Below, in pieces: positions 21,250 through 61,865 of a stretch of DNA of 64,000 nucleotides. Within the stretch, counting starts at the first letter, position 1. Each line of letters begins with the position of its first letter. The notes beneath the pieces are model-generated. The model searched no databases. It saw nothing but the letters and a program-made list of their open reading frames with translations, and was not told where the DNA came from. A program made the position numbers and the translations under genes. The stretch comes from an uncultured delta proteobacterium. GTDB lineage: Bacteria; Desulfobacterota; Desulfomonilia; UBA1062. Where the stretch lies: positions 128,001 through 192,000 of the forward strand of contig CAVVYZ010000015.1 of assembly GCA_963752595.1 (NCBI GenBank). Reading direction: 5' to 3'.

Positions 21250-21276
21250 TCAAGAAATCCGGGGAATACCCGATGA
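21250..21276 (+). promoter_or_regulatory. Putative sigma28 (FliA) promoter
   Basis: TCAAG-N15-CCGATGA, with the same spacing and the same TCAAGAAAT start as the site upstream of fliS (42499-42525). Confidence 0.6.
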
Positions 21277-21301
21277 TAAAAGTAAGGGATAGAGAATACA
21301 T

Positions 21302-22327
21302 ATGAAAATTGCCGACACTCACATATCCATGAACTCATCCAGGACCTATCTGGAAACCAACGAGGTAAAGGAGAGTTTGCGGGTATGGGTGAGTCAGACC
21401 GCGCCGCTGAATGCAAGACACCCCGATCAGGTAACCATCTCTCCAAAAGCCGAATCCATGTTGAAAAGATTTGAGAATGAGCTGGGCGAAGCTGGCATCG
21501 AAGAAAACATGGATGGAGAAATTTTGCTTAAAAAACTCATCACGGAGATCCTTTCGGGCAGGGAAGTCAAGCTGTCCCGGATAGAGAAGGTTTCAGGGCG
21601 TGGTTCTGAAATGGCGGAAGAGGCAAAAGAAGCGGCCACGAAGGAAAATCAGCGTCAGGGATGGGGCATGCTGTATGACTATGAACAGACCCACCATGAG
21701 AAAGAGGATGTAAGCTTTCAGGCAAAAGGCATTATCAAGACCGCGGACGGAAAAGAAGTCGTTTTTGCCTTCAAGCTCGATATGAGCAGGGAGCATCTCG
21801 AAAAGAACAGCATCAATATAAGGGCAGGGGATGTGGCCATCGATCCGCTCATTATCAACTTCGACGGCAATGCGGCAGATCTCTCCAGCATGAAGTTCGA
21901 GTTTGACCTCGATTCGGACGGGCAAGTCGAGCAGGTATCAGTACCGACAGCTGGAAGGGGCTTCCTGGCCATCGATCTGGATAATAGCAATACTATAGAT
22001 AATGGTTCCGAGCTGTTCGGCCCGAGTACGGGCAACGGTTTCGCAGAGCTCTCTGCATATGATGAAGACGGAAACAGCTGGATTGATGAAAACGACGAGG
22101 CTTACAGCAGGCTTCGGGTTATGACTGTGGACAGCAATGGATCGAGCATTTTGCAGACGTTGAAAGATACCGGTGCCGGCGCTATTTACCTCGGCAGGAG
22201 CACTACCCGGTTTGATATCCGTACAAGTTCTGACAACAGCCTTCTCGGCCAAGTCCGCACTACGGGCATCTATCTCCATGAAGACGGAACACCGGGAACC
22301 ATCCAGCAGTTGGATCTCATAGCATAA
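21302..22327 (+). CDS. Uncharacterised protein with a C-terminal FrpC-like self-processing / Ca-binding module
   Basis: D181-P182 (DPLIINFDG) followed by FDLDSDG, GFLAIDLDNSNTIDNGSELFG and GFAELSAYDEDGNSWIDENDEAYSRLRV, which align by eye to the FrpC self-processing module. Confidence 0.7.
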   Translation: MKIADTHISMNSSRTYLETNEVKESLRVWVSQTAPLNARHPDQVTISPKAESMLKRFENELGEAGIEENMDGEILLKKLITEILSGREVKLSRIEKVSGRGSEMAEEAKEAATKENQRQGWGMLYDYEQTHHEKEDVSFQAKGIIKTADGKEVVFAFKLDMSREHLEKNSINIRAGDVAIDPLIINFDGNAADLSSMKFEFDLDSDGQVEQVSVPTAGRGFLAIDLDNSNTIDNGSELFGPSTGNGFAELSAYDEDGNSWIDENDEAYSRLRVMTVDSNGSSILQTLKDTGAGAIYLGRSTTRFDIRTSSDNSLLGQVRTTGIYLHEDGTPGTIQQLDLIA

Positions 22328-23121: not shown

Positions 23122-24991
23122 ATGGCGAATCAGATTTTGGATGAAAGGGATCAGCGGTTCATCTTGTATGAGATGCTGGGGGTGGAGAAACTCTGTGGGT
23201 ATGAGAAGTATCGGGATTTCTCCAAGGACATGTTCGACATGATCCTCACCGAAGCGCAGAAGATGGCGGTGGATGAAGTTCTTCCCACCCTGGCCGAAGG
23301 AGACAAGGAAGGCTGTACGCTGAGCGACGGAAAGGTTTCTGTCCCGAAATGCTACCATCGCGCGTATCAGCTTTTCCGTGAGGGCGGCTGGATCGGGACG
23401 AATTTTCCTCCTGAAGAAGGTGGCCAGGGCCTGCCGGACAGCGTGAAGATTGCAGCCATCGACTGGTTCTACCATAACTTTGCCTTTTCTGCGTATCCGT
23501 TCGCGACCGAGGGAGCTGCGCACCTCATCCTGACCTACGGCACGGAAGCGCAGAAGAGAAAGTATATGGACAAGATGGTTCAGGGCATCTGGGGCGGAAC
23601 CATGGCACTGACCGAGCCCAATGCCGGATCCGATCTCGGCAATATGATTACCAAGGCGATACGTCAGCCGGACGGAACCTTCAGGATTCAGGGCACTAAA
23701 ATATTCATTACCGCAGGCGACAATGATCTGGTGGAAAATATTGTCCACCCCGTGCTTGCCAGGATTGAAGGCGATCCGGCCGGCACGAAGGGCATTTCGA
23801 TTTTCCTCGTGCCTAAGTATCTCGTCAACGATGACGGCTCCCTGGGCAGGCGCAATGACTATGAGATCGCCAATATCGAGCACAAGATGGGTATCCGGGG
23901 CAGCGCCACCTGCCTGATCAATTTCGGTGACAACAACAACTGCTATGCCGAACTGCTGGGTGACGAGCGAGAGGGCATGAAGATCATGTTCCAGATGATG
24001 AATGAGGCCCGTCTTGCCGTCGGCCTGCAGGGTCTCTGCAGTGCCTCGATCGCTTATCTCCATGCGCTTCAGTACACTAAAGACAGCCTCCAGGGCTCAT
24101 CACTCATTGAATTCAAAAATCCCAATGCTCCCCGCGTTCCCATCATCCATCACCCGGACGTCCGCAGGATGCTTCTGTGGATGAAATCCACCGTTGACAG
24201 CATGCGTGCCCTTATCTACTTCACTGCCTACTGTTTCGACATGGAAAAAGTTGCGAAGGACGAGGTGGAAAAGGACAAATGGCTTGGCATTCGCAGAGGT
24301 GCTAACCCCCATCGTTAAGGCATATTGCTCCGATATTGGCTTCAGGGTCACCGAGACAGCCATGCAGTGCTACGGCGGGTACGGCTTCTGCTGCGAGTAC
24401 CCTGTGGAGCAGTTCATCCGGGATGAAAAGATCGCATCCATCTATGAAGGGGCCAACGGCATTCAGGCCCTCGACCTCATCGGCCGCAAGCTCGGCATGA
24501 AGAAGGGCGCGTACTTCATGAATCTGCTCGGCGAGATGAATACCACAGTAACAAAATACAAGGACCTGACCGGCAATGCGGACATGGCAGCGGATGTCCA
24601 GAACGCCGTGAATAAACTCGCCGAGATGGGCATGTTCCTTGCCTCCTGCGCTAAGCAGGGCAAGTTCCTTGTGCCTGTCAACAATGCCTATCCCGTTCCT
24701 CATGATGATGGGCAAGGTCGTTTCTGGCTGGTTCCTCCTCTGGCAGGCCGGCGTTGCACAGCAGAAGCTCGATGCGCTGCCAAGGAAAAGGGTATTGACG
24801 AAAAGGACAAGACCGCCATAGCTCAGCTCATGCAAGGAGAACAAGGACGCCGCCTTCTATTCCGGCAAGATATATTCGGCCAGGTTTTTGCCAAGAACGT
24901 ACTGCCCGAGGTCGATGCGGCAGCAGTGGCCATCAAGACTGAAGACATGTCCATTCTGGAGATTCCTGAAGAAAGCTTCTGTTCGTATTAA
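23122..24991 (+). CDS. Acyl-CoA dehydrogenase, ~600 aa type (3' third interrupted by indels)
   Basis: GTMALTEPNAGSD, GTKIFIT, EHKMGIRGSAT, MNEARL, then in another frame TPIVKAY, GGYGF..EYPVEQ, IYEGANGIQALDL. Several frameshifts at about 24290-24890. Confidence 0.9.
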
Positions 24992-25039: not shown

Positions 25040-25412
25040 TAATGTCTCCTTCGGGGATGGTTGAAGGCCCTCGCCTTTAGGCGAAGAGAGGATTATATGT
25101 GTCGCTATGCGACGTTATAGGGTAGGAGCCCACACGAAAACTGACTTAAAGGTGCACCTGGTGTGGGTGCCTAAGTATCGGAAGAAGTTGTTGACCGGAG
25201 AAGTAGCTATTCGAGTAAGGGACCTGCTGAAGCAGATTGCGATTGAACATGAGTTGGAAGTGATATCCGGGAAGGTAGCCAGTGACCGTGACCATGTGCA
25301 CATGTTTATTGGGTATAATCCGAGCCAGGATATCAGCAAGATAGTGCAATGGCTGAAGGGAATAAGTTCCCGGGTAATTAAATCCCTCGCCTTCAAGGCG
25401 AGGGTCGTTTAG
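25040..25412 (+). mobile_element. tnpA: IS200/IS605-family element, internally deleted (truncated Y1 transposase at 25107-25412)
   Basis: HLVWVPKYRK, DHVH (HUH motif), LKGISSR. Matching subterminal hairpins at 25068-25088 (CCCTCGCCTTTAGGCGAAGAG) and 25384-25404 (CCCTCGCCTTCAAGGCGAGGG). The left boundary is approximate. Confidence 0.88.
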
Positions 25413-32300: not shown

Positions 32301-35260
32301 ATGCCGAATTCCGCCCTTTCAATCAATTCCATCTGCATGTCCCTGTTCAGAGTCACAAAGTAGGCGTTATATCCGGATATGCGGACGAGCAGATTCTGGT
32401 AGTTTTCCGGATGTTCCATGGCGTCTCTGAGTGTTTTGGAAGAGACGACATTCAGCTGCATCTGCATGCCGCCGAGATCGCTGTATGTTTTCACGTATGA
32501 ATAGATGTTATCCACGGCTTTCTGATGCGTCTCATTCGCGAGGCACGACTTTCACGTTAAAGGCGATATTGTTGTTCATGTTTTTCGGTTCCAGTCTGGC
32601 GACATCGCGGATGTTGTCCAGAATGCTCTTGGAGGCGTGCGGTTCGGGCGTCAGTCCCGGCGTAAAGGCTTTGCCGGCCAGCCTTCCCGAAGGAAGCGCT
32701 CCGGTCAGGGTGCCGAAAGCGACATGATTGGACATGGACCAGAACCCTGCCGTATATTTGCCGCCGCGGTAATTGATATGTTCCCAGAAACAGTCATGGG
32801 CAAGTTTTGTCACGCGGTTGGCTGTTGCCAGAGCTTCCTCGTTGCCGGAGCCGAACAGCGAGGCCTTGTTTTTTATCAAGGCCAGCAGGGCAGGGGTTGT
32901 TTTCAAAATTGGTGTTGACGGCATCCAGCAGTTCGCTAAAAGTTAACTTTCTTCTCTTCAAAGACAAGTTTTTTAATGACCATCAGCGAATCGGTGATAT
33001 CGGCAAGGCCGATACAGGCAGTGCCGGATGAGTTGTAAAGAGCGCCGCCTTTGGTAACGTCCTTGCCCTTTTTCAGCGGGCCTTCGATCAGGGCGGAGAT
33101 AAAAGGAGTCGGGCGGATGGCCTGATGAGCCTCACCCAGAAGATTATTGTATTCACAGGTCTGATCAGCCAGAGAAACGAAGCTGTGTGGCGAAAGCGTT
33201 GAAGAACGATTCGTAATCCTTAAAGTCTCCGGCCTTGATATCGCCGGTTTTCGGCCCCAGATCCCAGCGCATCAAGGGATGCCTGCCGTTGTTGAGAGCC
33301 ATTTCGAGCGCCGCCACCATGTTGAACATCATGCAGTTGGTGTGGCCGATATGGCGGCCGGAAAGGGTCGGCTCCACACAGCCGGTTGCCGACCAGTCCC
33401 GCAGATGCTCCGGCGGGATAATTGAATTCCGCGAGTGATGCCATGACAGCCTCGTCATTGTGGATCGAAGGAGTGGCGGTGGTATTCAAATTGACTTCGC
33501 AAAGCCGTTTCAGATATGTGGCGCTGTTTTTTCCCTATTGTAACGGGCATTGACGTTGGGGTCGCGGATGGAGAGCATTTCCGTGATTTTCAGAAAGATA
33601 TAAGTCATATCATTGACCGCGTCTTCGCCTTCCGGCGTCACGCCGCCCAGGGTGATGGCCTGATCGGAGGAACTGCCGCCGAACAGATAGTTGCCGATGT
33701 CCGGTATCAAAGGCAGATGATCTGTGCAGCGCATGTAAAAACAGCCGATCAGTTCGATGGCGTGCTTTATATATGTTTCCTTCTTCTGCTTTATCACTGA
33801 TTTTTTCCATGTCGGCTGAAAAATAAGGCTGAAGCCACTGATCCAGCCGTCCCAGCGAAAATCCGGCGTTGGTGTTTTCCATGTGCACGCCGACCCAGAT
33901 TATCCACATGGCGTTAACGGCTTCATCGAGCGTCGTGCAGGGATTCTCCGGAACATTCCGGCAGATACCGGCAAGACGCTGAAGCTCTTCTTTGCGAACG
34001 GGATCAGTTTCATTCGACGCCTCAGTCGCAGCCTTTCTAGAAAGGTTTTCCGCGTAAGTGATGAGTCCTTCGAACAGATAATCATTGCTTCAAGGGTATC
34101 TTTCTGTTCAGTCTGATCGGCGTGCCCGTCCCTGGCAAGCTCTTCTCTGATTTCCCGGATAATCCCCTTCGCCCCCAGCCTTAATAGCTTGGGGTAATCG
34201 AGGATAGTGTGGGACAGAGCGAGCAGTCTTCCAGAGAAAATAGACGGCAAAGCGGTCATCAAGGCTCTGGCAGAGCGGCTTACTGTAGAATCTCTCACCC
34301 ATTCCTTGAAGTTCCGCCTTGTCCAGAAGGGAAACACGGTGTGATGGAGGATTTCTCTGGTATCATCGCTGATATCGTAGGGAAAGAGCCGCCGGTAGGG
34401 GGTCGTAAGAGTTCACCCCAGATCATGGTTCCATGGGAATCGGGGTAAAGGACCACACCGATCTCATTTGTCGTGGTGGTTCCTGCGATGAGGTCATTTT
34501 TTCTGATAATGGGCTTCCTGTTCTCCATGAGATGCTTGAATGCATTTGCCTGCCTGAGCTCGGGAACCCATGGCTTGCCGTCCTTCTTTGTTTCGAATCC
34601 ATTGTTCCTGAACCATTGGGTGAGCAGCAACGGGCGTTCATGGCAGATGACAGGCTTTACCGTAAAATGGATGTCGAGGAATCTTTGGAGCCGGGGAAAA
34701 TCCTTCAGGGAGTAGTGAGAAAGATAGGGATCATCCTTGAGGTACAATACGCCGGGATCAATTGTGTCTCCCTTGAGCTGTTTATTTTCGCCCCTTGCCG
34801 GAGACGGGTTCGCTCCTATCCCGGAGCAGGAAACTGCCGGACTTTCCTGTCCCTGGCTTTTCATCATCTCGATCTGCTTGCCTTTTACGAACAGCGAGAT
34901 GAAAAAATTGAAGAGCTGGGCATACACGAGGTTTCCCTTCACGATCAGCTTGTTCTTGAGGATGAGGTTGAGCACCTCGTTCGGAGGCAGTGAGGCCAGG
35001 TCCTTCAATATGGATGTGTCGAGAAATACCATCTCGGTATCGACGTCTGCAGGTATCTTTCCGGAAACATTGACCTTGCCGTCCCGGAATGATATGCACT
35101 GCTCCACATCCCCTTTTTCCGTACGAAGCCCTATCGAGAAATTGAACCGGCCGTCATCCGTGCACAGATATTCTTTGAATTTGGGCAGGTAGTTAAAAGA
35201 AAATGCCATGGCCTGCAGCGCCAAATGCGTCGCAATATTTGCCATATTCCCCTTGAACAT
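32297..35260 (-). CDS. Glycyl-radical enzyme (GCVE eliminase type) with an N-terminal SCP2-like domain; ~990 aa reconstructed across about ten indels
   Basis: Start at ATG 35260 after AGGAGG. Fragments give ICHERP, LIAG, FSLGRLDQ, ITLGG, AVNDMTY, GCVEP (33369-33383), GLAD, ALPSGR, QLNVV, LLVRISGY (32369-32383). Confidence 0.88.
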
Positions 35261-35368
35261 AGACACCTCCTGTTTTCTCCAGGGGCACAATGCCTGAGAA
35301 TGTATCAGGCCTTCATTTTTCCCCCTGGCCTCATGCCACGAGTAAAGAAGCCCTTTTGGACCGAAGGA

Positions 35369-36064
35369 TCACCCTGTATTACTTATCATTTCAGGTGTTA
35401 TCTTCGGCTGAATGCCTTCACATCCGTCTCCTGCGATAACCGGTTTCAGGAGATCACGGGCAACCTGCTCGATGATCTGCTCCGGATTATCGTCTACCTC
35501 GGGGAGGACCCTGCTGTTGTAGAGAGCAATGATTCCATGAAGGGTGCTCCAGAGCTTTATGACGAAGTAGCGTGTTTGATCCGGGGGCATGCATTTTGTC
35601 ATGCTGATCACGTCCTGAAGCGCCCTCGAAGTGATGTCAATGAGTTTCAGCGCAGTCTGTTTCTCGAAGAATGCCACGGGCTCGATCTCTGTGCCGACAT
35701 AGTCCCGGTATTTTGGGGCATCGGAGGTGAACATGATATTGTAGTAGTGGGCCTTGTTTATCCCGAAATCGATGTATGCCCTCACCATATCCTGGAGCTT
35801 GCGGGCCGGGTCGCAGGCAGATTCATAAATACCGGCAAACCGCTGGTAAAGCATATCGAAACCTTTGGTAAGAATCATGAGATAGAGTTCGTCTTTGTTC
35901 GAATAATAGTTGTAAATGGTTGTTGCAGTCATACCCAGGCGGGAGGCGAGCTTTCTCATACTGAAGGAAGTGAATCCGTGCTCTGAGATAAGAGCGAGAG
36001 CTTCATCAAGAATTTTTTCCCTGATAAGTTCTCTGTCTTCTTGACTCCGAGGTATCTTTGGCAT
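35369..36064 (-). CDS. TetR/AcrR family transcriptional regulator
   Basis: ILDEALALISEHGF..FSMRKLASRLGMTATTIYNYYSNKDEL; C-terminal LWSTLHG (WHG-like). Confidence 0.93.
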   Translation of the reverse strand: MPKIPRSQEDRELIREKILDEALALISEHGFTSFSMRKLASRLGMTATTIYNYYSNKDELYLMILTKGFDMLYQRFAGIYESACDPARKLQDMVRAYIDFGINKAHYYNIMFTSDAPKYRDYVGTEIEPVAFFEKQTALKLIDITSRALQDVISMTKCMPPDQTRYFVIKLWSTLHGIIALYNSRVLPEVDDNPEQIIEQVARDLLKPVIAGDGCEGIQPKITPEMISNTG

Positions 36065-36080
36065 ATATATCCTTTAAAGA

Positions 36081-36134
36081 ATAACACTGTTAAGATAACA
36101 TTGTTATATTAACCTCGGCACTTAAGGATGTCAA
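36081..36134 (-). promoter_or_regulatory. tetR-GRE promoter with tandem palindromic operators
   Basis: Minus-strand TTGACA(36134)-N17-TAATAT(36106). Palindromes TAACA-C-TGTTA (36082-36092) and ATAACA-T-TGTTAT (36095-36107). Confidence 0.7.
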
Positions 36135-36308
36135 GGAATGTATTGATACGGATTTTGGGTTATAAAGAGCAGAGCTGTAATGCATGGGAAGATGATATCC
36201 CTTTCACTCCGGAGAAAGGGCTGAATGCACCGAAACCTCTTGGGGAAAAGGCTGGATTGAACGGATCGCAACACACTTGTCCATCTGCAATAAACAAAAG
36301 GAGGGCAC

Positions 36309-38298
36309 ATGAATCGAGGATATATGGGAAAGATCCTGATGGTCGACCTCGCAACAGGATTCCGGGAAGAGACGATCCCCGATGAGGTCTATGAGAAGTA
36401 CCTTTCAGGGCTGGGCCTTGCAGCATACCTCCTGTACGACCGGATACCTGCAGGCGCCGATCCGCTGGGACCGGATAATATACTCGGATTCGTTTCCGGG
36501 CTTCTGACGGGGACCGGCAGCCTCTTTTGCCGGCAGGTGGATGGTGGTGGGAAAGTCTCCGCTCACCGGCGGCTGGGGCGATGCCAATTGCGGCGGCTCC
36601 TTCTCTCCTGCCATCAAGCGTTGCGGCTATGACGGGATATTCTTTACCGGGATCAGCGAAAAGCCGGTCTTTCTTTATATCAAGAATGGTAAGGTCGAGC
36701 TCAGGGATGCTGCATCCCTCTGGGGCAAAGATACCATCGGAGACAGAAGAGATCCTGCAGGAGGAATACGGTGAAGGACGCCCGGGTGGCGGTAATCGGC
36801 CCTGCGGGAGAAAGACTCTCCTTGATCTCGGGGATCATGCAATGACAAGGGAAGGCTTGCAGCCAGATCAGGTCTCGGTGCGGTCATGGGTTCAAAACGG
36901 CTCAAGGCAGTGGTGCTCGACGGAAAGAAACGGATCGGTCTCCATATCGGGATGAAGTGCAGAAACTGAGCAAGACATGCAACAAGTGGGTACAGTTCCA
37001 GCTTCCCCTCGGTCCGGGCATCGGCGTGGGATTCCTGGGCACCCTACTGAGGGTTCTGCCGACTGCCATGGCACATGGACGGCTTGATTTACAAGATGAT
37101 CCTAAGGCAATGGGGCACCGGGGGTTGAACCAGATGTCTCCCGAATGGGGTGATTCTCCCATCAAGAACTGGAAGGGGAGCAATGTCGACTGGCCCATGA
37201 AAAGGTCGAAATCCGCCAGATCCGGACCGCATCAAGAAATATGCGAAGCAGAAGTACCACTGCTACTCCTGTCCTCTCGGGATGCGGAGGGAACTGCTCA
37301 ATACCGGCAAGTACAGCGAGACGCACAAGCCCGAGTACGAGTCGGTCCTCGCCCTGGGCGGGCTTTGCATGAACGAGGATACGGACAGCCTCTTCTATCT
37401 CAACGAAATGCTGAACCGGGCGGGAATGGATACCATCTCGGCAGGCGCCACCGTGGCCTTTGCCATGGAATGCTACGAAAAGGGCATCCTCACAAAGGAA
37501 GATACCGGACGGCATCGATCTGTACCTGGGGCAATGCGAGCGGGATAATCGCACTGATTCACAAGATGATAAACCGGGAAGGGATCGGAGATATCCTTGC
37601 GGACGGCTCCAAGGTGGCATGCAGGAGAAGATCGGCAAGGGAGCAGAAAAATATGCCGTCCACGCAGGCGGCCAGGAACCGGCCATGCATGACGGCAGGC
37701 ATGGACCCGGGCTTTGCCGTACATTATTCGGTGGAACCCACCCCCGGCCGGCATACCATCGGTTCCCAGCTCTATTATGAGATGTTCCAGCTCTGGAAAA
37801 AGGTCAAGGGGTTGCCGAAGAAATGGCCGTTCCAGATCTACCACAAGAACAGCAGGTATACGGCGCATCACAGAGCAGGCCCGTGAAGCTGCTGCGTGCA
37901 GCAAATACATGAACGTGGTGAACGGTGCGGGTATCTGCATGTTCGGTGCCTTCCTCGGTATCACGAGAACCCCCACATTCGACTGGCTCAATGCGGTCAC
38001 AGGCTGGAATAAGACCCCGAAGAGTACATGGAGATCGGCGAGCGGATCCAGACGATGAAGCAGGCATTCAACATCAAGCATGGGATAGAGCCGAAGAGCG
38101 AACAAGCTGAGCGACGTGCACTCGGAAGGGGCCGCTCGCATGCAGGGCGCCAACAAAGGCAGGACGGTTCTCATCGAAAAGATGATGAGCGATTACTGGG
38201 ACCAGTTCGGATGGGACCCTGTCAACCGGCAAACCTACCCCGGAATGTCTGGCACGTCTTGGGATAGAAGCTTGATAGTAAAGCTAAAGGGAGGATGA
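36309..38298 (+). CDS. Aldehyde:ferredoxin oxidoreductase family (W/Mo), reconstructed across multiple indels
   Basis: GYMGKILMVDL, ADPLGPDNIL, KSPLTGGWGDANCGG, GYDG, GAVMGSKRLKA, PEYES, GMDTISAG, REGIGDILADG. The 3' end is approximate. Confidence 0.88.
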
Positions 38299-38732
38299 CG
38301 ATGCCTTTCACGATTACACAGGCATGTAACGGGTGCCAGGCATGTAGGAGGATTTGCCCCGCAGATGCAATCTCAGGTGAAAAGAAAAAACTCATACCAT
38401 CGACGGACACGGTATGCATAGAATGCGGTGCATGCGGCAGGATATGTCCCCAACAGGCCGATCCTGGATGGCTCGGGAAAGGCATGTACGCATGGTCAAA
38501 CGTTCCCAGTGGAAGAACCCGCAGTTCGAGGATGAAGACCTGCATGTCGTGCACCATCTGCATCGATGCCTGCCCGGTGAACTGTCTTGCCCTTACGGAA
38601 GCAAATAAGGCAAGGGACCTGCATGGGTATCCGTACCTGAAGGATGAGAAGGCCTGCATCGGATGCGGATTCTGTGCAGCCGAGTGCCCGGTGGATGCGA
38701 TTAGCCATGAGACCCTTGCCCAAGGAGGCTAA
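38295..38732 (+). CDS. Polyferredoxin with four CxxCxxCxxxCP motifs
   Basis: CNGCQACRRICP, CIECGACGRICP, CMSCTICIDACP, CIGCGFCAAECP; directly follows the AOR gene after a GGGAGG RBS. Confidence 0.88.
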   Translation: MTMPFTITQACNGCQACRRICPADAISGEKKKLIPSTDTVCIECGACGRICPQQADPGWLGKGMYAWSNVPSGRTRSSRMKTCMSCTICIDACPVNCLALTEANKARDLHGYPYLKDEKACIGCGFCAAECPVDAISHETLAQGG

Positions 38733-38819
38733 GCTCCATGAAACCGTGGAAAGAGGCCGCATAACAGTATGCGGGGCATGTCTGATTGAAGTGCCCCGGT
38801 CTTCACCTGGTGCATTTCG

Positions 38820-39603
38820 TCAGAACATGATTGCGGTGAGGAAGTAGTCGGCAATAAGGATGCAGACCGAAGATATGACGACCGAGTATGGTGGTGGAAT
38901 TGCCGACACCTTCGGCACCGCCGCTCGGTGCTGTATCCTTTGTAGCATCCCACCAATGACAGGATGAACCCGAAGAAGGTCGCCTTTGCCAGCCCGTGTG
39001 AAAAGATCCGAGATAGTATGACATAATCGACGATCCGGGCCATGAAGATTCCCTCATCGATGTGCGAGGAGCTCGACCCCCACCAGATAGGACCCGAAAA
39101 CGCCGAATGCTGTCGAAGAGAGGGTGAGCATGGGCATCATGACGATCGTGGCAATGATCCGGGGAATGACGAGGTACTGAAAGGGGTTGACCCCCATGAC
39201 GGTCAAGGGCGTCAACCTGTTCGGTTACCCGCATGGTGCCGATCTCGGCGGTCATGGCAGATCCGGCCCGGGCAGTTACCATGAGGGATGCGAGCACCGG
39301 GCCCAGTTCTCTGAACAGCCCGAGCGTAGTGGTGGACCCGACCAGGGATTCCGCCCCGAAGAGGCTGAACCCATGATGGGTCTGCAGTGCGCTCACCATC
39401 CCGGTGAACATGCCGGTGAGCAGTACAACTGCTGGTCGGACCGCATCCCGATGAACTCCATCTGCTTGAAGAACTGCTTCAAGAACACGGGAGGCCTGAT
39501 CAGCCAGTAGATCATGTCTGATAGATAGAAGAGTGCAGATGCGCCAACCTGTTCAAGAGAATGAAATGGTCAGCCTGTCCGATGATATGCGAAACATCTT
39601 CAT
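38820..39603 (-). CDS. mlaE: MlaE family ABC transporter permease (frameshifted)
   Basis: FTGMV, RELGPVLASLMVTARAGSAMTAEIGTMRVTEQVDAL, KATFFG, GCYKGY, GAEGVG spread over several frames. Confidence 0.85.
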
Positions 39604-39613
39604 TTGTTCCCAG

Positions 39614-41102
<1,489 letters not shown>

Positions 41103-41747: not shown

Positions 41748-42116
41748 TCAGGTTCGTTCGCTTTTGAAACGGGGGGTTACCGACTTTCCCTGCCGGTAGC
41801 CTTTCATGGAGGTCTTGTTCTTCCTGATCGTGCCGATGGCATTCGAGATTTCCTGGGTGCCTTTCTTTAATTCTGCAATCAGGTCTGATTGGATGGTCTG
41901 GATTTCCTTGAGCAGGCCTAAACTTGCCTTGTCGAGCTTCAACGGGGCAGGTGCAGAGAGAAGATTGTCAAGCCGCGTCTGGAATGCAACCGATATCTGA
42001 GCGAGCTTACCGAAGTCTTCCAGATTTCCATCGAGCAAAACCTGGACTTGCTTCAGGGTAAGAGCATGCCACTGCCTGATGCTCTTTATGATGTTTTCTT
42101 TATTATCTTCTCCCAT
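41748..42116 (-). CDS. Hypothetical helical protein, FliT/FlgN-like by position
   Basis: Overlaps the end of fliS; ~120 aa helical composition ending in ..GY. Confidence 0.5.
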   Translation of the reverse strand: MGEDNKENIIKSIRQWHALTLKQVQVLLDGNLEDFGKLAQISVAFQTRLDNLLSAPAPLKLDKASLGLLKEIQTIQSDLIAELKKGTQEISNAIGTIRKNKTSMKGYRQGKSVTPRFKSERT

Positions 42117-42463
42117 GATTCCTTCAGTTCCTGGAGGTAGCTTATCACCTCGTCAGCGGCTTCGATATTCTTATTATACTCGGCATCAATAACGCGCCGT
42201 ATCATGTAATTGTACAGGGATTCCAGATTATGAGCGATTTCCCCTGCATCGAAATTGAGGCTGTTCAAGAGCTCCCAGAGAATATTCTGTACCTTGTTGA
42301 GACAATTGACACGTGCCGGCTCATCATTGTCCTGCTGGGCCTTCTGGGCTTTTTTCAAAAAATTGATAGCTCCGTCGTAGCACATAAGGATAAGGCTTCC
42401 CTGATCTGCAGTTTGGATCTGGGTTTTTTTGTAAGCCTCATAGCCTGTTGGATTCATATACAT
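42086..42463 (-). CDS. fliS: Flagellar export chaperone FliS
   Basis: AYKKTQIQTA..LILMCYDGAI, ELLNSL, IAHNLESLYNY, LKESW; start moved to 42463. Confidence 0.93.
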   Translation of the reverse strand: MYMNPTGYEAYKKTQIQTADQGSLILMCYDGAINFLKKAQKAQQDNDEPARVNCLNKVQNILWELLNSLNFDAGEIAHNLESLYNYMIRRVIDAEYNKNIEAADEVISYLQELKESWEKIIKKTS

Positions 42464-42498
42464 TACCGACCCTCCCCCACCAAGAGATGCTAAAAGCA

Positions 42499-42525
42499 TT
42501 ATCGGATTCTGAATTTATTTCTTGA
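42499..42525 (-). promoter_or_regulatory. Putative sigma28 (FliA) promoter of fliS
   Basis: TCAAG-N15-CCGATAA directly upstream of a late flagellar gene. Confidence 0.7.
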
Positions 42526-60104: not shown

Positions 60105-60252
60105 CAGCACATACTGCCGGATTTGTTTTTCTGTTTTATAAACACAATATTTCTGTCCCGATAAGTGTCTTGTTGAGGTTCTGAACAACTGACTGTGTAT
60201 AATAAAATGAGGTAGTTTAAGATTTTTTCACAGCATCCCGATACCAAATAGC

Positions 60253-60750
60253 GTGAACAGTAAAAGATGGCTTTTCCATCTCTATTTTTTTGTCCTGATA
60301 GGGGGTTGCACTGCCCAGTCAAATATCTCTTCCGACCAGATCTGGCCTGAAGATAAGCGCATGGTGCGGCTGGAGCGGGATGTCCAGATATTATGCGACG
60401 ATCTGGTGAAAAATATAACACCAAACAGCGTCGCTATTACCTGGTACGACAACCTTCATCCTCATTCCCCGATGCTTTCAGAGGCATATGTAGTATCCAT
60501 GTTCGAAAGAAGCCTTATCCGCAGGGGATTTACCGTGAGCCTGGATGAAGAAGATGCATACTACAAACTCATGCTTGCCATGACTCCTTCACAAAAATCC
60601 CTCCTTACTCTGGCATCGCTCACGCATGGCGACAAAATGTTCGCAACAAAAGAAGCGCACTTCGTCAACGGCTCGGAGAAATGGAACAAGGCACTCTGTT
60701 CCTACCGGTTCAGGACAAAGAACAGGATTCCTATAGGGAGCAGACCATGA
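60253..60750 (+). CDS. Hypothetical lipoprotein
   Basis: IGGC lipobox; ATGA overlap with the next gene. Confidence 0.7.
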   Translation: MNSKRWLFHLYFFVLIGGCTAQSNISSDQIWPEDKRMVRLERDVQILCDDLVKNITPNSVAITWYDNLHPHSPMLSEAYVVSMFERSLIRRGFTVSLDEEDAYYKLMLAMTPSQKSLLTLASLTHGDKMFATKEAHFVNGSEKWNKALCSYRFRTKNRIPIGSRP

Positions 60751-61289
60751 AACGTAGTGCGGGCCTCATTTTCGGGTTCTTTCTGCTCGGCTGCTCACAT
60801 ATGCCGCTCATCGATCTGAACAGCACAACCACAATCGATCAATGTGCGAGCCGACTATCCAAGGGCATCTGTAAAGGTCTCGAGGATTCCTATATGGGTG
60901 TAAGCGTACTCGTGAGCGCACCTGTCGATGCAGTCACCTTTTCCTCGAATGAATTCGGACTGGCGTTGCAGGAGTTCATGATCGGCGCAATGGCAGAAAG
61001 AAACTCAAATATCGTTGATATACAGCTCAGAAAAGAGCCGTACATAAATTGCAAGGAGGGGCTGATAAGCCTGAGCAGGGATGTAAGCAGGCTTCGCCCC
61101 GATATCAAGGCTGAGGTCATTGTCGTAAGCACATACGTTGTGAGCAAGGAAGATGTGGTCGTGACTGCACGGGCAATCGACTACACGACCAACGATGTCA
61201 TTGTCTCAGCCACTGCTCATCTAAAACGGACTGAACAGATCGATCATCTCTTGAACAGCAGGGAGCAGGTTCAATTATTTGAAAAATAA
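60747..61289 (+). CDS. FlgO-like outer-membrane lipoprotein
   Basis: LLGC lipobox; FG..L.E, LSRD...L, V.STY..VTARAID..VIVSA pattern. Confidence 0.65.
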   Translation: MKRSAGLIFGFFLLGCSHMPLIDLNSTTTIDQCASRLSKGICKGLEDSYMGVSVLVSAPVDAVTFSSNEFGLALQEFMIGAMAERNSNIVDIQLRKEPYINCKEGLISLSRDVSRLRPDIKAEVIVVSTYVVSKEDVVVTARAIDYTTNDVIVSATAHLKRTEQIDHLLNSREQVQLFEK

Positions 61290-61298
61290 CACAGGGAG

Positions 61299-61865
61299 GT
61301 GGAGATGTCCATGGACATCCAAACTATCCGGAAGATCACCCTTGTAGGTTTCTGCTTTGTTCTTGCCGGGTGTGCTCTTGTAAAGCCGACGCGAGGGCTT
61401 GACGAGGTAACCCCAATAGACTGGGGCTTAGGTGACTCTTTTGAAAGCGGCATAACGGTTCTGCCTTTTGATGCCCAGGACGAAAAATGGGGTGTCTATG
61501 CAGCAAAACAGATGAAGCAGCACCTCCTTGAAAGCAAGGCATTCCGGAGGGTGATTTATTCCGAGAAGGATACCGGAAATGCCCCTTATGCGTTGAAGGG
61601 AGAGCTCGAATACCTGTACTATGGAGGCACTCATTCACCTTCAAAGGTGTGCGTAAGCATGAGGATCATTGACGTAAAAGACGGGCAAACCCGTTTTATG
61701 CGCGTATCAAGGGCATCTTCGGAAAAAGACGCGTTTCACATGACATGGCTGAGCAGGGTATATGTGCCATCGCCTTATCCGGAAGAGATCCTCAATTCCC
61801 TGCTCAAACACATAGCCGAAGATATTGCCCATCGGACATCGCTACCAGCGAAGAAGTGCCCCTGA
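61299..61865 (+). CDS. Hypothetical lipoprotein (CsgG/TolB-N-like fold suspected)
   Basis: LAGC lipobox; VLPF..L....F..V, LKGEL, MRIIDVKDG. Confidence 0.6.
   Translation: MEMSMDIQTIRKITLVGFCFVLAGCALVKPTRGLDEVTPIDWGLGDSFESGITVLPFDAQDEKWGVYAAKQMKQHLLESKAFRRVIYSEKDTGNAPYALKGELEYLYYGGTHSPSKVCVSMRIIDVKDGQTRFMRVSRASSEKDAFHMTWLSRVYVPSPYPEEILNSLLKHIAEDIAHRTSLPAKKCP

Follow-up and report, generated by a model that had tools for sequence, protein, structure and literature searches.

The gene at positions 21302 to 22327 (+) of the 64-kb window (the whole stretch of DNA that was analysed, 64,000 nucleotides) encodes a protein, P0001, that belongs by sequence and by fold to the self-processing module (SPM) family, but that stands outside the RTX class. 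The domain as such is already known, having been labelled SPM (PF26745) in Pfam 38.1. What is new is the N-terminal half of the protein, which is predicted to form a three-stranded ribbon, and a pattern of co-variation that would dock the SPM on the tip of this ribbon. The features on which the argument draws are as follows.

21250..21276 (+): sigma28 (FliA)-type promoter motif TCAAG-N15-CCGATGA, from sequence; conserved upstream of homologues
21284..21289 (+): candidate ribosome-binding site AAGGGA, read from sequence
21302..22327 (+): gene for the stand-alone SPM protein P0001, 341 aa, from ORF translation
21308..21391 (+): predicted long strand b1, residues 3-30, antiparallel to b2 (AlphaFold2; coupling diagonal i+j=149-151)
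21515..21556 (+): predicted helix 72-85 with an L..L.E.LTGK motif, in a variable, low-confidence linker (AlphaFold2 and alignment)
21662..21829 (+): predicted long hairpin b2-b3, residues 121-147 and 152-176, with a T-x-D-G tip (AlphaFold2; diagonal i+j=296-298)
21842..21847 (+): GATCCG, Asp181-Pro182, predicted scissile bond, aligned to the FrpC site
21845..22324 (+): self-processing module, 160 aa (Pfam 38.1 PF26745 SPM), from sequence and fold match to FrpC
21902..21931 (+): acidic loop F-D-x-D-x-D-G, residues 201-210, common to RTX-type SPMs (alignment)
21974..22012 (+): EF-hand-like loop 1, D225-E237, equivalent to FrpC D462-E474 (alignment)
22061..22096 (+): EF-hand-like loop 2, D254-D265, equivalent to FrpC D499-D511, with family-specific W260 and E263 (alignment)
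22175..22279 (+): SPM hairpin 292-326, longer than that of RTX-type SPMs; predicted docking face for the ribbon tip (couplings)
42086..42525 (-): for comparison, fliS (Pfam FliS) with a TCAAG-N15-CCGATAA motif (pattern match)

The relationship to FrpC is apparent at several levels. P0001 matches the FrpC SPM structure (6SJW) with a phmmer E of 2.6e-5, the profile of its family matches the FrpC SPM at 1.7e-14, and its predicted fold matches the same module with a Foldseek E of 5e-10 and a VIA Z of 19.3 (rmsd 2.8 Å over 147 residues). The original prediction had read Asp181-Pro182 as the opening of a 160 aa C-terminal module and had proposed a profile and structure comparison with FrpC; the modules are indeed homologous, and the motifs it quoted are present in the translation, with GAT CCG at 21842. 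The local copies of Pfam and NCBIfam contained no family for P0001, the assignments to PF26745 (SPM) and PF28292 (DUF8379) coming solely from the Atlas.

The predicted scissile bond is very strongly conserved. Of 265 unfiltered family sequences, 264 have the Asp and all have the Pro, and an alignment made without an Asp-Pro filter gives 464 and 465 of 465, respectively; these two sets were used for the counts instead of the 558-sequence alignment, 97 entries of which had been chosen for D-P. A lack of Asp-Pro conservation in homologues, named at the outset as a refuting outcome, was thus not seen. Position 181 is Glu or Asn in none of the 465 sequences, the adjoining positions vary freely, and the linker ahead of Asp-Pro varies in length across the family. 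The motif at the scissile site of P0001 is x-D-P-L, and the residue preceding the Asp is Ile, which is none of the three (D, G or P) reported to block SPM cleavage when they stand at this position (PMC7846742). RTX-type SPM segments from other loci have the scissile Asp in just 21 of 28, their Asp at position 186 being present in 28 of 28 by construction of the selection pattern. SPM domains within long ORFs are common in Pseudomonadota, being present in about 50 of 300 genomes (for example at loci L105-L111 and L206-L229), and in 7 of 28 SPM segments from long ORFs Ser or Thr replaces the scissile Asp; such segments are possibly inactive or altered in their chemistry.

Comparison of the calcium ligands and catalytic residues gives a more mixed picture. 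Both main EF-hand-like loops (225-237 and 254-265) are nearly invariant in the family, and the acidic loop 201-210 is additionally conserved, but two of the four Ca sites of folded FrpC are degenerate. FrpC Ca site 4 (D419/D421/D423/D456) corresponds to N186, two variable positions and S(R)219, the loop equivalent to FrpC D521-E532 is shortened, and Pro occupies the position of FrpC D478, where the D478A substitution is reported to slow cleavage (PMC7078468). The equivalents of FrpC W451 and W519 are Phe in 378 and Trp in 493 of 558 family sequences, P0001 itself having V214 and M274 at these positions and also S229. An alignment with RTX-type segments (Glu in 13 and Asp in 10 of 28) suggests that the position of FrpC D579 is Gln336, on an FrpC numbering that we in part take as given. 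FrpC D579N is described as active and D579A as inactive (PMC7078468). The amino acids of FrpC's "narrow port", L475, G477 and G491 (PMC7078468), are L238, G240 and G246 in P0001, and each is kept in at least 263 of 265 family sequences. Couplings place I180 near L203, E210 and P241, and N245 near Q336, an arrangement that resembles the published placement of the N-terminus of FrpC beside residues 477-479, H490 and 578-582 (PMC7078468). The FrpC module is reported to require about 150 μM Ca and to be active solely outside cells (PMC7078468). Judging from FrpC chemistry, we consider it quite likely that P0001 would cleave itself at Asp181-Pro182 in a Ca-dependent manner.

For the N-terminal half, AlphaFold2 predicts three very long strands (residues 3-30, 121-147 and 152-176) together with helices, whether the whole protein (pLDDT 77) or the N-half alone (pLDDT 80) is modelled, with a pTM of 0.52 in either case; the strands are continuous, at pLDDT 88-98. 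Couplings calculated from 465 and 558 sequences give the strand order b1-b2-b3 with unbroken antiparallel registers. The tip of the predicted ribbon consists of Met1/Lys2 and the T147-x-D149-G turn, and its base of W29, W121 and D177, the last of which sits four residues ahead of the scissile Asp181. On one face, a hydrophobic patch at the tip and another at the base flank a charged middle; in the tip half the hydrophobic band is one-sided and about five residues deep per strand, and the middle has no conserved Gly or Pro. The Met1 position is fixed in 544 of 558 sequences, and Lys is found at any of positions 2, 146 and 151 in 477 of 558, with no tip lysine invariant.

This half corresponds to no known family or fold. 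Its alignment matched no family in local Pfam and NCBIfam, searches by sequence gave no solved relative, and fold comparison gave no match at Z of at least 8 and none among viral structures; the Atlas returned look-alikes only at 0.82. Weak matches to ribosomal eS7 were rejected as chance. The best fold matches of the N-half were pore-state beta-barrels, namely complement at Z 5.8-6.0 and gasdermins and Aegerolysin-L at Z 4-5, and the best beta-pore-former comparison (Z 5.8, rmsd 6.8 Å, 90 residues aligned) is within the background for long strands. A complex prediction with four N-domains scored 0.21. The registers of a side-by-side barrel and of an antiparallel ribbon dimer were also considered and rejected, their couplings not rising above background.

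Co-variation between the two halves of the protein is concentrated at the ribbon tip. By rank, the strongest inter-domain couplings are I145-L325 (8), K2-N264 (21), M10-S300 (27) and V137-T302 (33), followed by M161-V318 (46), R14-R303 (51) and I8-Y296 (53). Ribbon-SPM pairs at z>6 number 20 in the tip half and 2 in the base half, and mean-field top-L counts for tip versus base are 46 versus 25 and 48 versus 28. When the alignment was divided at 55% identity into two independent halves, I145-L325, K2-N264, M10-S300, V137-T302, R14-R303 and I8-Y296 were within the top 132 of 22057 pairs in both, whereas for M161-V318, F139-T302 and H165-N312 the signal was strong in just one of them, and for K151-S236 in neither. 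The couplings from base to SPM are weak: I173-I334 (ranks 166 and 163 in the two halves), V30-S269 and W121-W260. On the SPM side, a family-specific conserved surface (W260, E263, G293, A294, Y296, T302 and L325) co-varies partly with the protein's own N-domain, and several of the SPM coupling partners are polar or variable in RTX-type SPMs.

I185 couples to Y324 and A292, which adjoin I145 and K146, and lies only 8 residues past D177. We estimate that a contact within one chain would limit the D177-I145 distance to about 45 Å, versus about 80 Å for the 24 intervening residues of a straight strand; this gap leaves two possibilities, a sheet that turns back on itself by about 180 degrees, or an SPM seated on the tip of another chain, in which case the new anhydride would come to lie next to the neighbour's N-terminus and tip lysines. 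We lean toward the second arrangement, since the couplings point, with some confidence, to chain-to-chain docking, in which the ribbon tip that receives the SPM belongs to another copy. In the original prediction, the N-domain was attached to filaments, matrix or partner cells. The co-variation of the conserved SPM surface with the family's own N-domain does not bear this out as the main outcome, and suggests that the protein is first joined to a further copy of itself.

The gene appears to be wired to flagellar assembly. The sigma28 consensus used for scoring is TAAA/TCAA-N15-GCCGATAA, and 200 nt upstream of each gene were scored, a match being defined by at most two mismatches and a spacer of 15-16 nt. 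A sigma28-like motif precedes the family gene in 64 of the 98 loci of a first set, where the controls gave 1/98 for the reverse strand and 1/96 for downstream sequence, and shuffling led one to expect 1.7. It was found again in 58 of the 92 loci of an independent second set, against 0/92 on the reverse strand and 6/280 upstream of other genes in the same loci. A check of homologues for this motif had been part of the original proposal, and its outcome makes sigma28 control of the family gene very probable. The site at 21250 gains weight only from these homologues: a genome-wide count of the exact pattern gives 6 occurrences with a spacer of 15, 6 with one of 10 and 5 with one of 13, so that spacer 15 is no commoner than the other two and the lone site is not above chance. 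The sole second match to the TCAAG-N15-CCGATGA-type pattern in the window, at 42525 (-), lies ahead of the gene with the Pfam FliS domain, in keeping with the earlier remark that the upstream motif mirrors the fliS promoter. In the genome as a whole, a similar motif precedes fliS, flgL, and ORFs that by eye resemble flgN and cheX.

Several other genes with sigma28-like motifs came to light in this genome. One such motif lies ahead of an ORF of 311 aa (G000:C5:218832, +) that begins like a signal peptide and has no evident identity, and a LysM-like ORF at C5:178542 is likewise placed. Within the window, a motif with a 14 nt spacer lies ahead of three lipoprotein-like ORFs (60139-61865, +), the second of which has a Pfam FlgO domain; this is possibly a FlgO/P/T-type flagellar outer-membrane ring operon. 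At 41748-42499 (-), fliS is paired with a 122 aa FlgN/FliT-like ORF (identified by eye, without a Pfam match), and the pair stands behind an aminotransferase gene, with its own sigma28-like motif and away from other flagellar genes.

Carriers of the family gene nearly always have flagellar genes. The source genome has FliA, FlhA, FlgL and FliS; flagellin and FliD were not found in its assembly, which is 84% complete, and all four sampled members of its taxonomic family have two flagellin-domain matches each. Among 300 genomes of its phylum, 18 carry an intact family gene, and a flagellin/FlgL domain is present in 17 of these versus 160 of 282 non-carriers (Fisher p 0.001, overstated by kinship), the 18th carrier having FliA. 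The corresponding figures for 250 Bacillota genomes are 24 of 24 carriers versus 167 of 226 others (p 0.002, inflated by kinship), and across phyla the domain was found in 48 of 50 carriers, results being given for 50 of 80 loci. The contrast is empty in Pseudomonadota, where 5 of 5 carriers are flagellated but so are 49 of 51 genomes with other (RTX-type) SPM matches. One carrier, G198, had no FliA above the cut-off. These co-occurrences, also proposed at the outset as a check, together with the motif counts support the earlier description of a late-flagellar-class protein. The family gene is nevertheless not a core flagellar part, because most flagellated genomes do without it; it is present in 17 of 177 and in 24 of 191, or about one in ten.

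No neighbouring gene is conserved beside the family gene across phyla, although individual loci have flagellar surroundings. In L016 the order is flagellin, three ORFs, the family gene, fliD, fliS and flaG- and flgBC-like ORFs (the last by eye), and in L011, L047 and L049 the family gene adjoins flaG. In six loci, mostly of Desulfobulbaceae type and including L032, L061, L065, L073 and L075, the family gene has nearby a member of an ORF cluster for which Pfam assigns a SprA-related domain to the representative. In the source genome, P0001 is a single-copy, apparently monocistronic gene among neighbours that a Pfam scan identified as metabolic or housekeeping. No type I secretion family was found among the 36 neighbouring ORFs scanned, a subset of those in the window, in agreement with the first observation, and no HlyD match above cut-off was found in the 84% complete genome. 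Absence of RTX repeats and of a Sec signal, likewise claimed for P0001, extends to its relatives: of 260 family proteins, a single one has the RTX nonapeptide pattern and none has a hydrophobic stretch at the N-terminus. Given the regulon, the absence of another export signal, the presence of the family in bacteria with either one or two membranes and the dependence of the SPM on Ca outside the cell, we infer that the protein is probably exported unfolded through the flagellar channel.

At window positions 23122-24991 and about 32500-41100, several genes (acyl-CoA dehydrogenase, glycyl-radical-like, aldehyde oxidoreductase-like, MlaE and glycerol kinase) appear split by frameshifts, which suggests indel errors of the assembly and not biology. 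An incomplete IS200-type transposase lies at 25107-25412 (+).

The family itself is large and uniform in architecture. Scoring of 8000 candidates gave 5583 near-length matches, and 2130 representatives at 50% identity have an E of at most 1e-30. Named records come from Desulfobacterota, Nitrospirota, Beta- and Gammaproteobacteria and Bacillota, and lone bins from Planctomycetaceae, Sandaracinaceae and Verrucomicrobiia (some bin labels may be wrong); bacteria with one and with two membranes share the same architecture. The hosts are mostly environmental anaerobes, and cultured carriers include Methylobacter tundripaludum SV96, Aromatoleum toluolicum T, Acidovorax sp. GW101-3H11 and Dechloromonas. 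In proteins of about 340-370 aa, the order is constant: an N-part of about 176-220 aa, D-P and an SPM of 158-160 aa (5th-95th percentile of 260 proteins, five more that the split pattern missed being left out), which is the last domain. The N-domain profile had 443 matches, and all 120 listed carry an SPM; no longer protein with a P0001-type N-domain was present among 676 candidates, which is a weak test. Matches in plasmid and phage collections were confined to the SPM, and none of them spanned 80% of the query. A match from Tistrella H1 was rejected as a member, being an RTX-type protein instead. Databases name the family proteins hypothetical or VCBS repeat-containing, and the "VCBS repeat-containing protein" of two secretomes (PMC13274458, PMC10746435) could not be tied to this family from the portions of those reports consulted. 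The family gene occurs as tandem pairs in L008 (3782-6066) and L237 (G320:C19:48266-50556), and in three copies in G406.

We propose the following sequence of events. Transcription driven by sigma28 would make the SPM protein late in flagellar assembly, and the protein would leave the cell unfolded via the flagellar channel. Outside, Ca would fold it, and its module would attach to the tip of an adjacent copy's ribbon and cleave at Asp181-Pro182, after which the liberated Asp would likely be joined to an amine of the adjacent copy, candidate acceptors being the N-terminal alpha-amine, Lys2, Lys146 and Lys151. The SPM anhydride is known to react with alpha-amines (PMC7846742). What results would be either a fibre of covalently linked subunits arranged head to tail or a closed oligomer such as a dimer or ring, located at the flagellum or cell surface or close by. 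For this chain as a whole, from sigma28 through export and docking to the amide link, we put the probability at about 0.42. Its most specific form, an extracellular fibre of flagellated bacteria whose flagellum-exported subunits dock, clip and fuse their Asp to the next N-terminus or tip lysine, we offer only tentatively.

Export and cleavage could also lead to a different weld, in which the ribbon is joined mainly to foreign lysines, whether of flagellin or the cap, matrix or partner cells, and serves as an adhesin or filament coat. FrpC is described as linking non-specifically to nearby lysines and cell-surface proteins (PMC7078468), the welding of FrpC1-414 is the analogous case, some family copies sit among fliC and fliD, and an invariant acceptor lysine is absent from the family. 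We nevertheless regard this outcome as somewhat unlikely, because the family-specific SPM surface co-varies partly with its own N-domain, which indicates a self partner, and because no conserved adjoining partner gene comparable to frpD is found. A purely structural, Ca-binding module, with the Asp-Pro kept for folding and nothing cut, would make the protein a non-covalent extracellular or flagellum-associated component. The two degenerate FrpC Ca sites and the Pro in place of D478 fit such a role, as does the apparent retention of the SPM in a conserved interface with the ribbon. It is made unlikely by the absence of Glu and Asn at position 181 in 465 sequences with freely varying neighbours, by the preserved port residues and by the activity of FrpC D579N, given that the family has Gln at the inferred equivalent position.

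The hydrophobic tip raises the prospect that the SPM is a removable cap and that Ca-induced cleavage would free ribbons to assemble into a beta-barrel pore or tube, making the protein a flagellum-secreted pore-former. Both the one-sided band of the tip half and the pore-state barrels among the best matches of the N-half are in line with this, but the Z values of those matches are within the background for long strands, there is no significant edge-to-edge coupling diagonal for b3-b1 or for like strands, the N-terminus and charged tip would need to cross the membrane, and the hosts, mostly environmental anaerobes, conserve no immunity gene nearby. We consider a pore quite unlikely. Most improbable is a monomer whose ribbon folds round its own SPM, so that cleavage would cyclise the N-domain via its own N-terminus into a protease-resistant ring. 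Self-cyclisation is a known side reaction of the SPM (PMC7846742), both hydrophobic patches lie on one face, and the weak couplings V30-S269, I173-I334 and W121-W260 connect base and SPM; such a ring would, however, require a bend of about 180 degrees in a sheet that has an unbroken register, continuous AlphaFold2 strands at pLDDT 88-98 and no conserved Gly or Pro midway. The preferred reading is the chain from sigma28 to a link between neighbouring copies.

With the SPMs of FrpC from Neisseria meningitidis and ApxIVA (6SJW, 6SJX), P0001 shares the fold, the initial Asp-Pro, two EF-hand-like loops, the L/G/G port residues and the lack of a Sec signal. FrpC-type hosts are RTX proteins of >1000 aa that leave by type I secretion, and the SPM has been called "exclusively present" there (PMC7078468); a review likewise places it in RTX hosts (PMC3034196), and SPM engineering work is reported to have drawn on RTX-type homologues only (PMC12538545). 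P0001 differs from this class in being 341 aa long, with the SPM last and no C-terminal RTX repeats, and its family differs in the sigma28-type motif, the altered Ca sites, the conserved surface that co-varies with its own N-domain and the occurrence in Bacillota besides Gram-negative groups. Our searches of the mostly open-access literature found no paper describing this family, and to that extent the original view that no such system had been described still stands, although the domain itself already bore the name SPM in Pfam 38.1.

The nearest type III precedent is the MIIA domain (DUF1521, PF07481) of NopE1 and VIC_001052, described as type III-secreted, as lacking a classical Ca-binding motif and as cleaving itself in a Ca-dependent manner after the Asp of GDPH (PMC6506597). 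It provides a precedent for Asp-Pro cleavage on a type III route in an unrelated domain, P0001 having no match to PF07481 at E<=1, but MIIA proteins leave by the injectisome, whereas the flagellum is proposed here. Export of non-flagellar cargo via the flagellum, as proposed for P0001, is described for the Campylobacter Cia proteins and Vibrio MakA, for which we found no sequence or fold link to P0001. To our knowledge, neither carries a self-processing module. Sortase pili and the HK97 chainmail are covalently cross-linked protein polymers whose subunits are joined by amide links, as would be those of the P0001 product; the link proposed here would arise from the anhydride of the protein's own Asp-Pro cleavage, without sortase and without a Lys-Asn autocatalytic triad.

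So far, reports of clip-and-link chemistry are confined to giant RTX proteins that leave by type I secretion. The family described here has the SPM in a small protein that is tied to the regulon of late flagellar genes, and it comprises thousands of sequence clusters from Gram-negative and Gram-positive bacteria. Its divergent SPMs, with their altered calcium sites, may serve anhydride-ligation tools such as NeissLock, and the small size of the proteins and the existence of cultured carriers make the question accessible to direct testing. If the proposal is correct, flagellar exports would gain a covalent cross-linker, and possibly a self-welding fibre, which would be one covalently continuous protein thread, made without an enzyme and widespread among bacteria.
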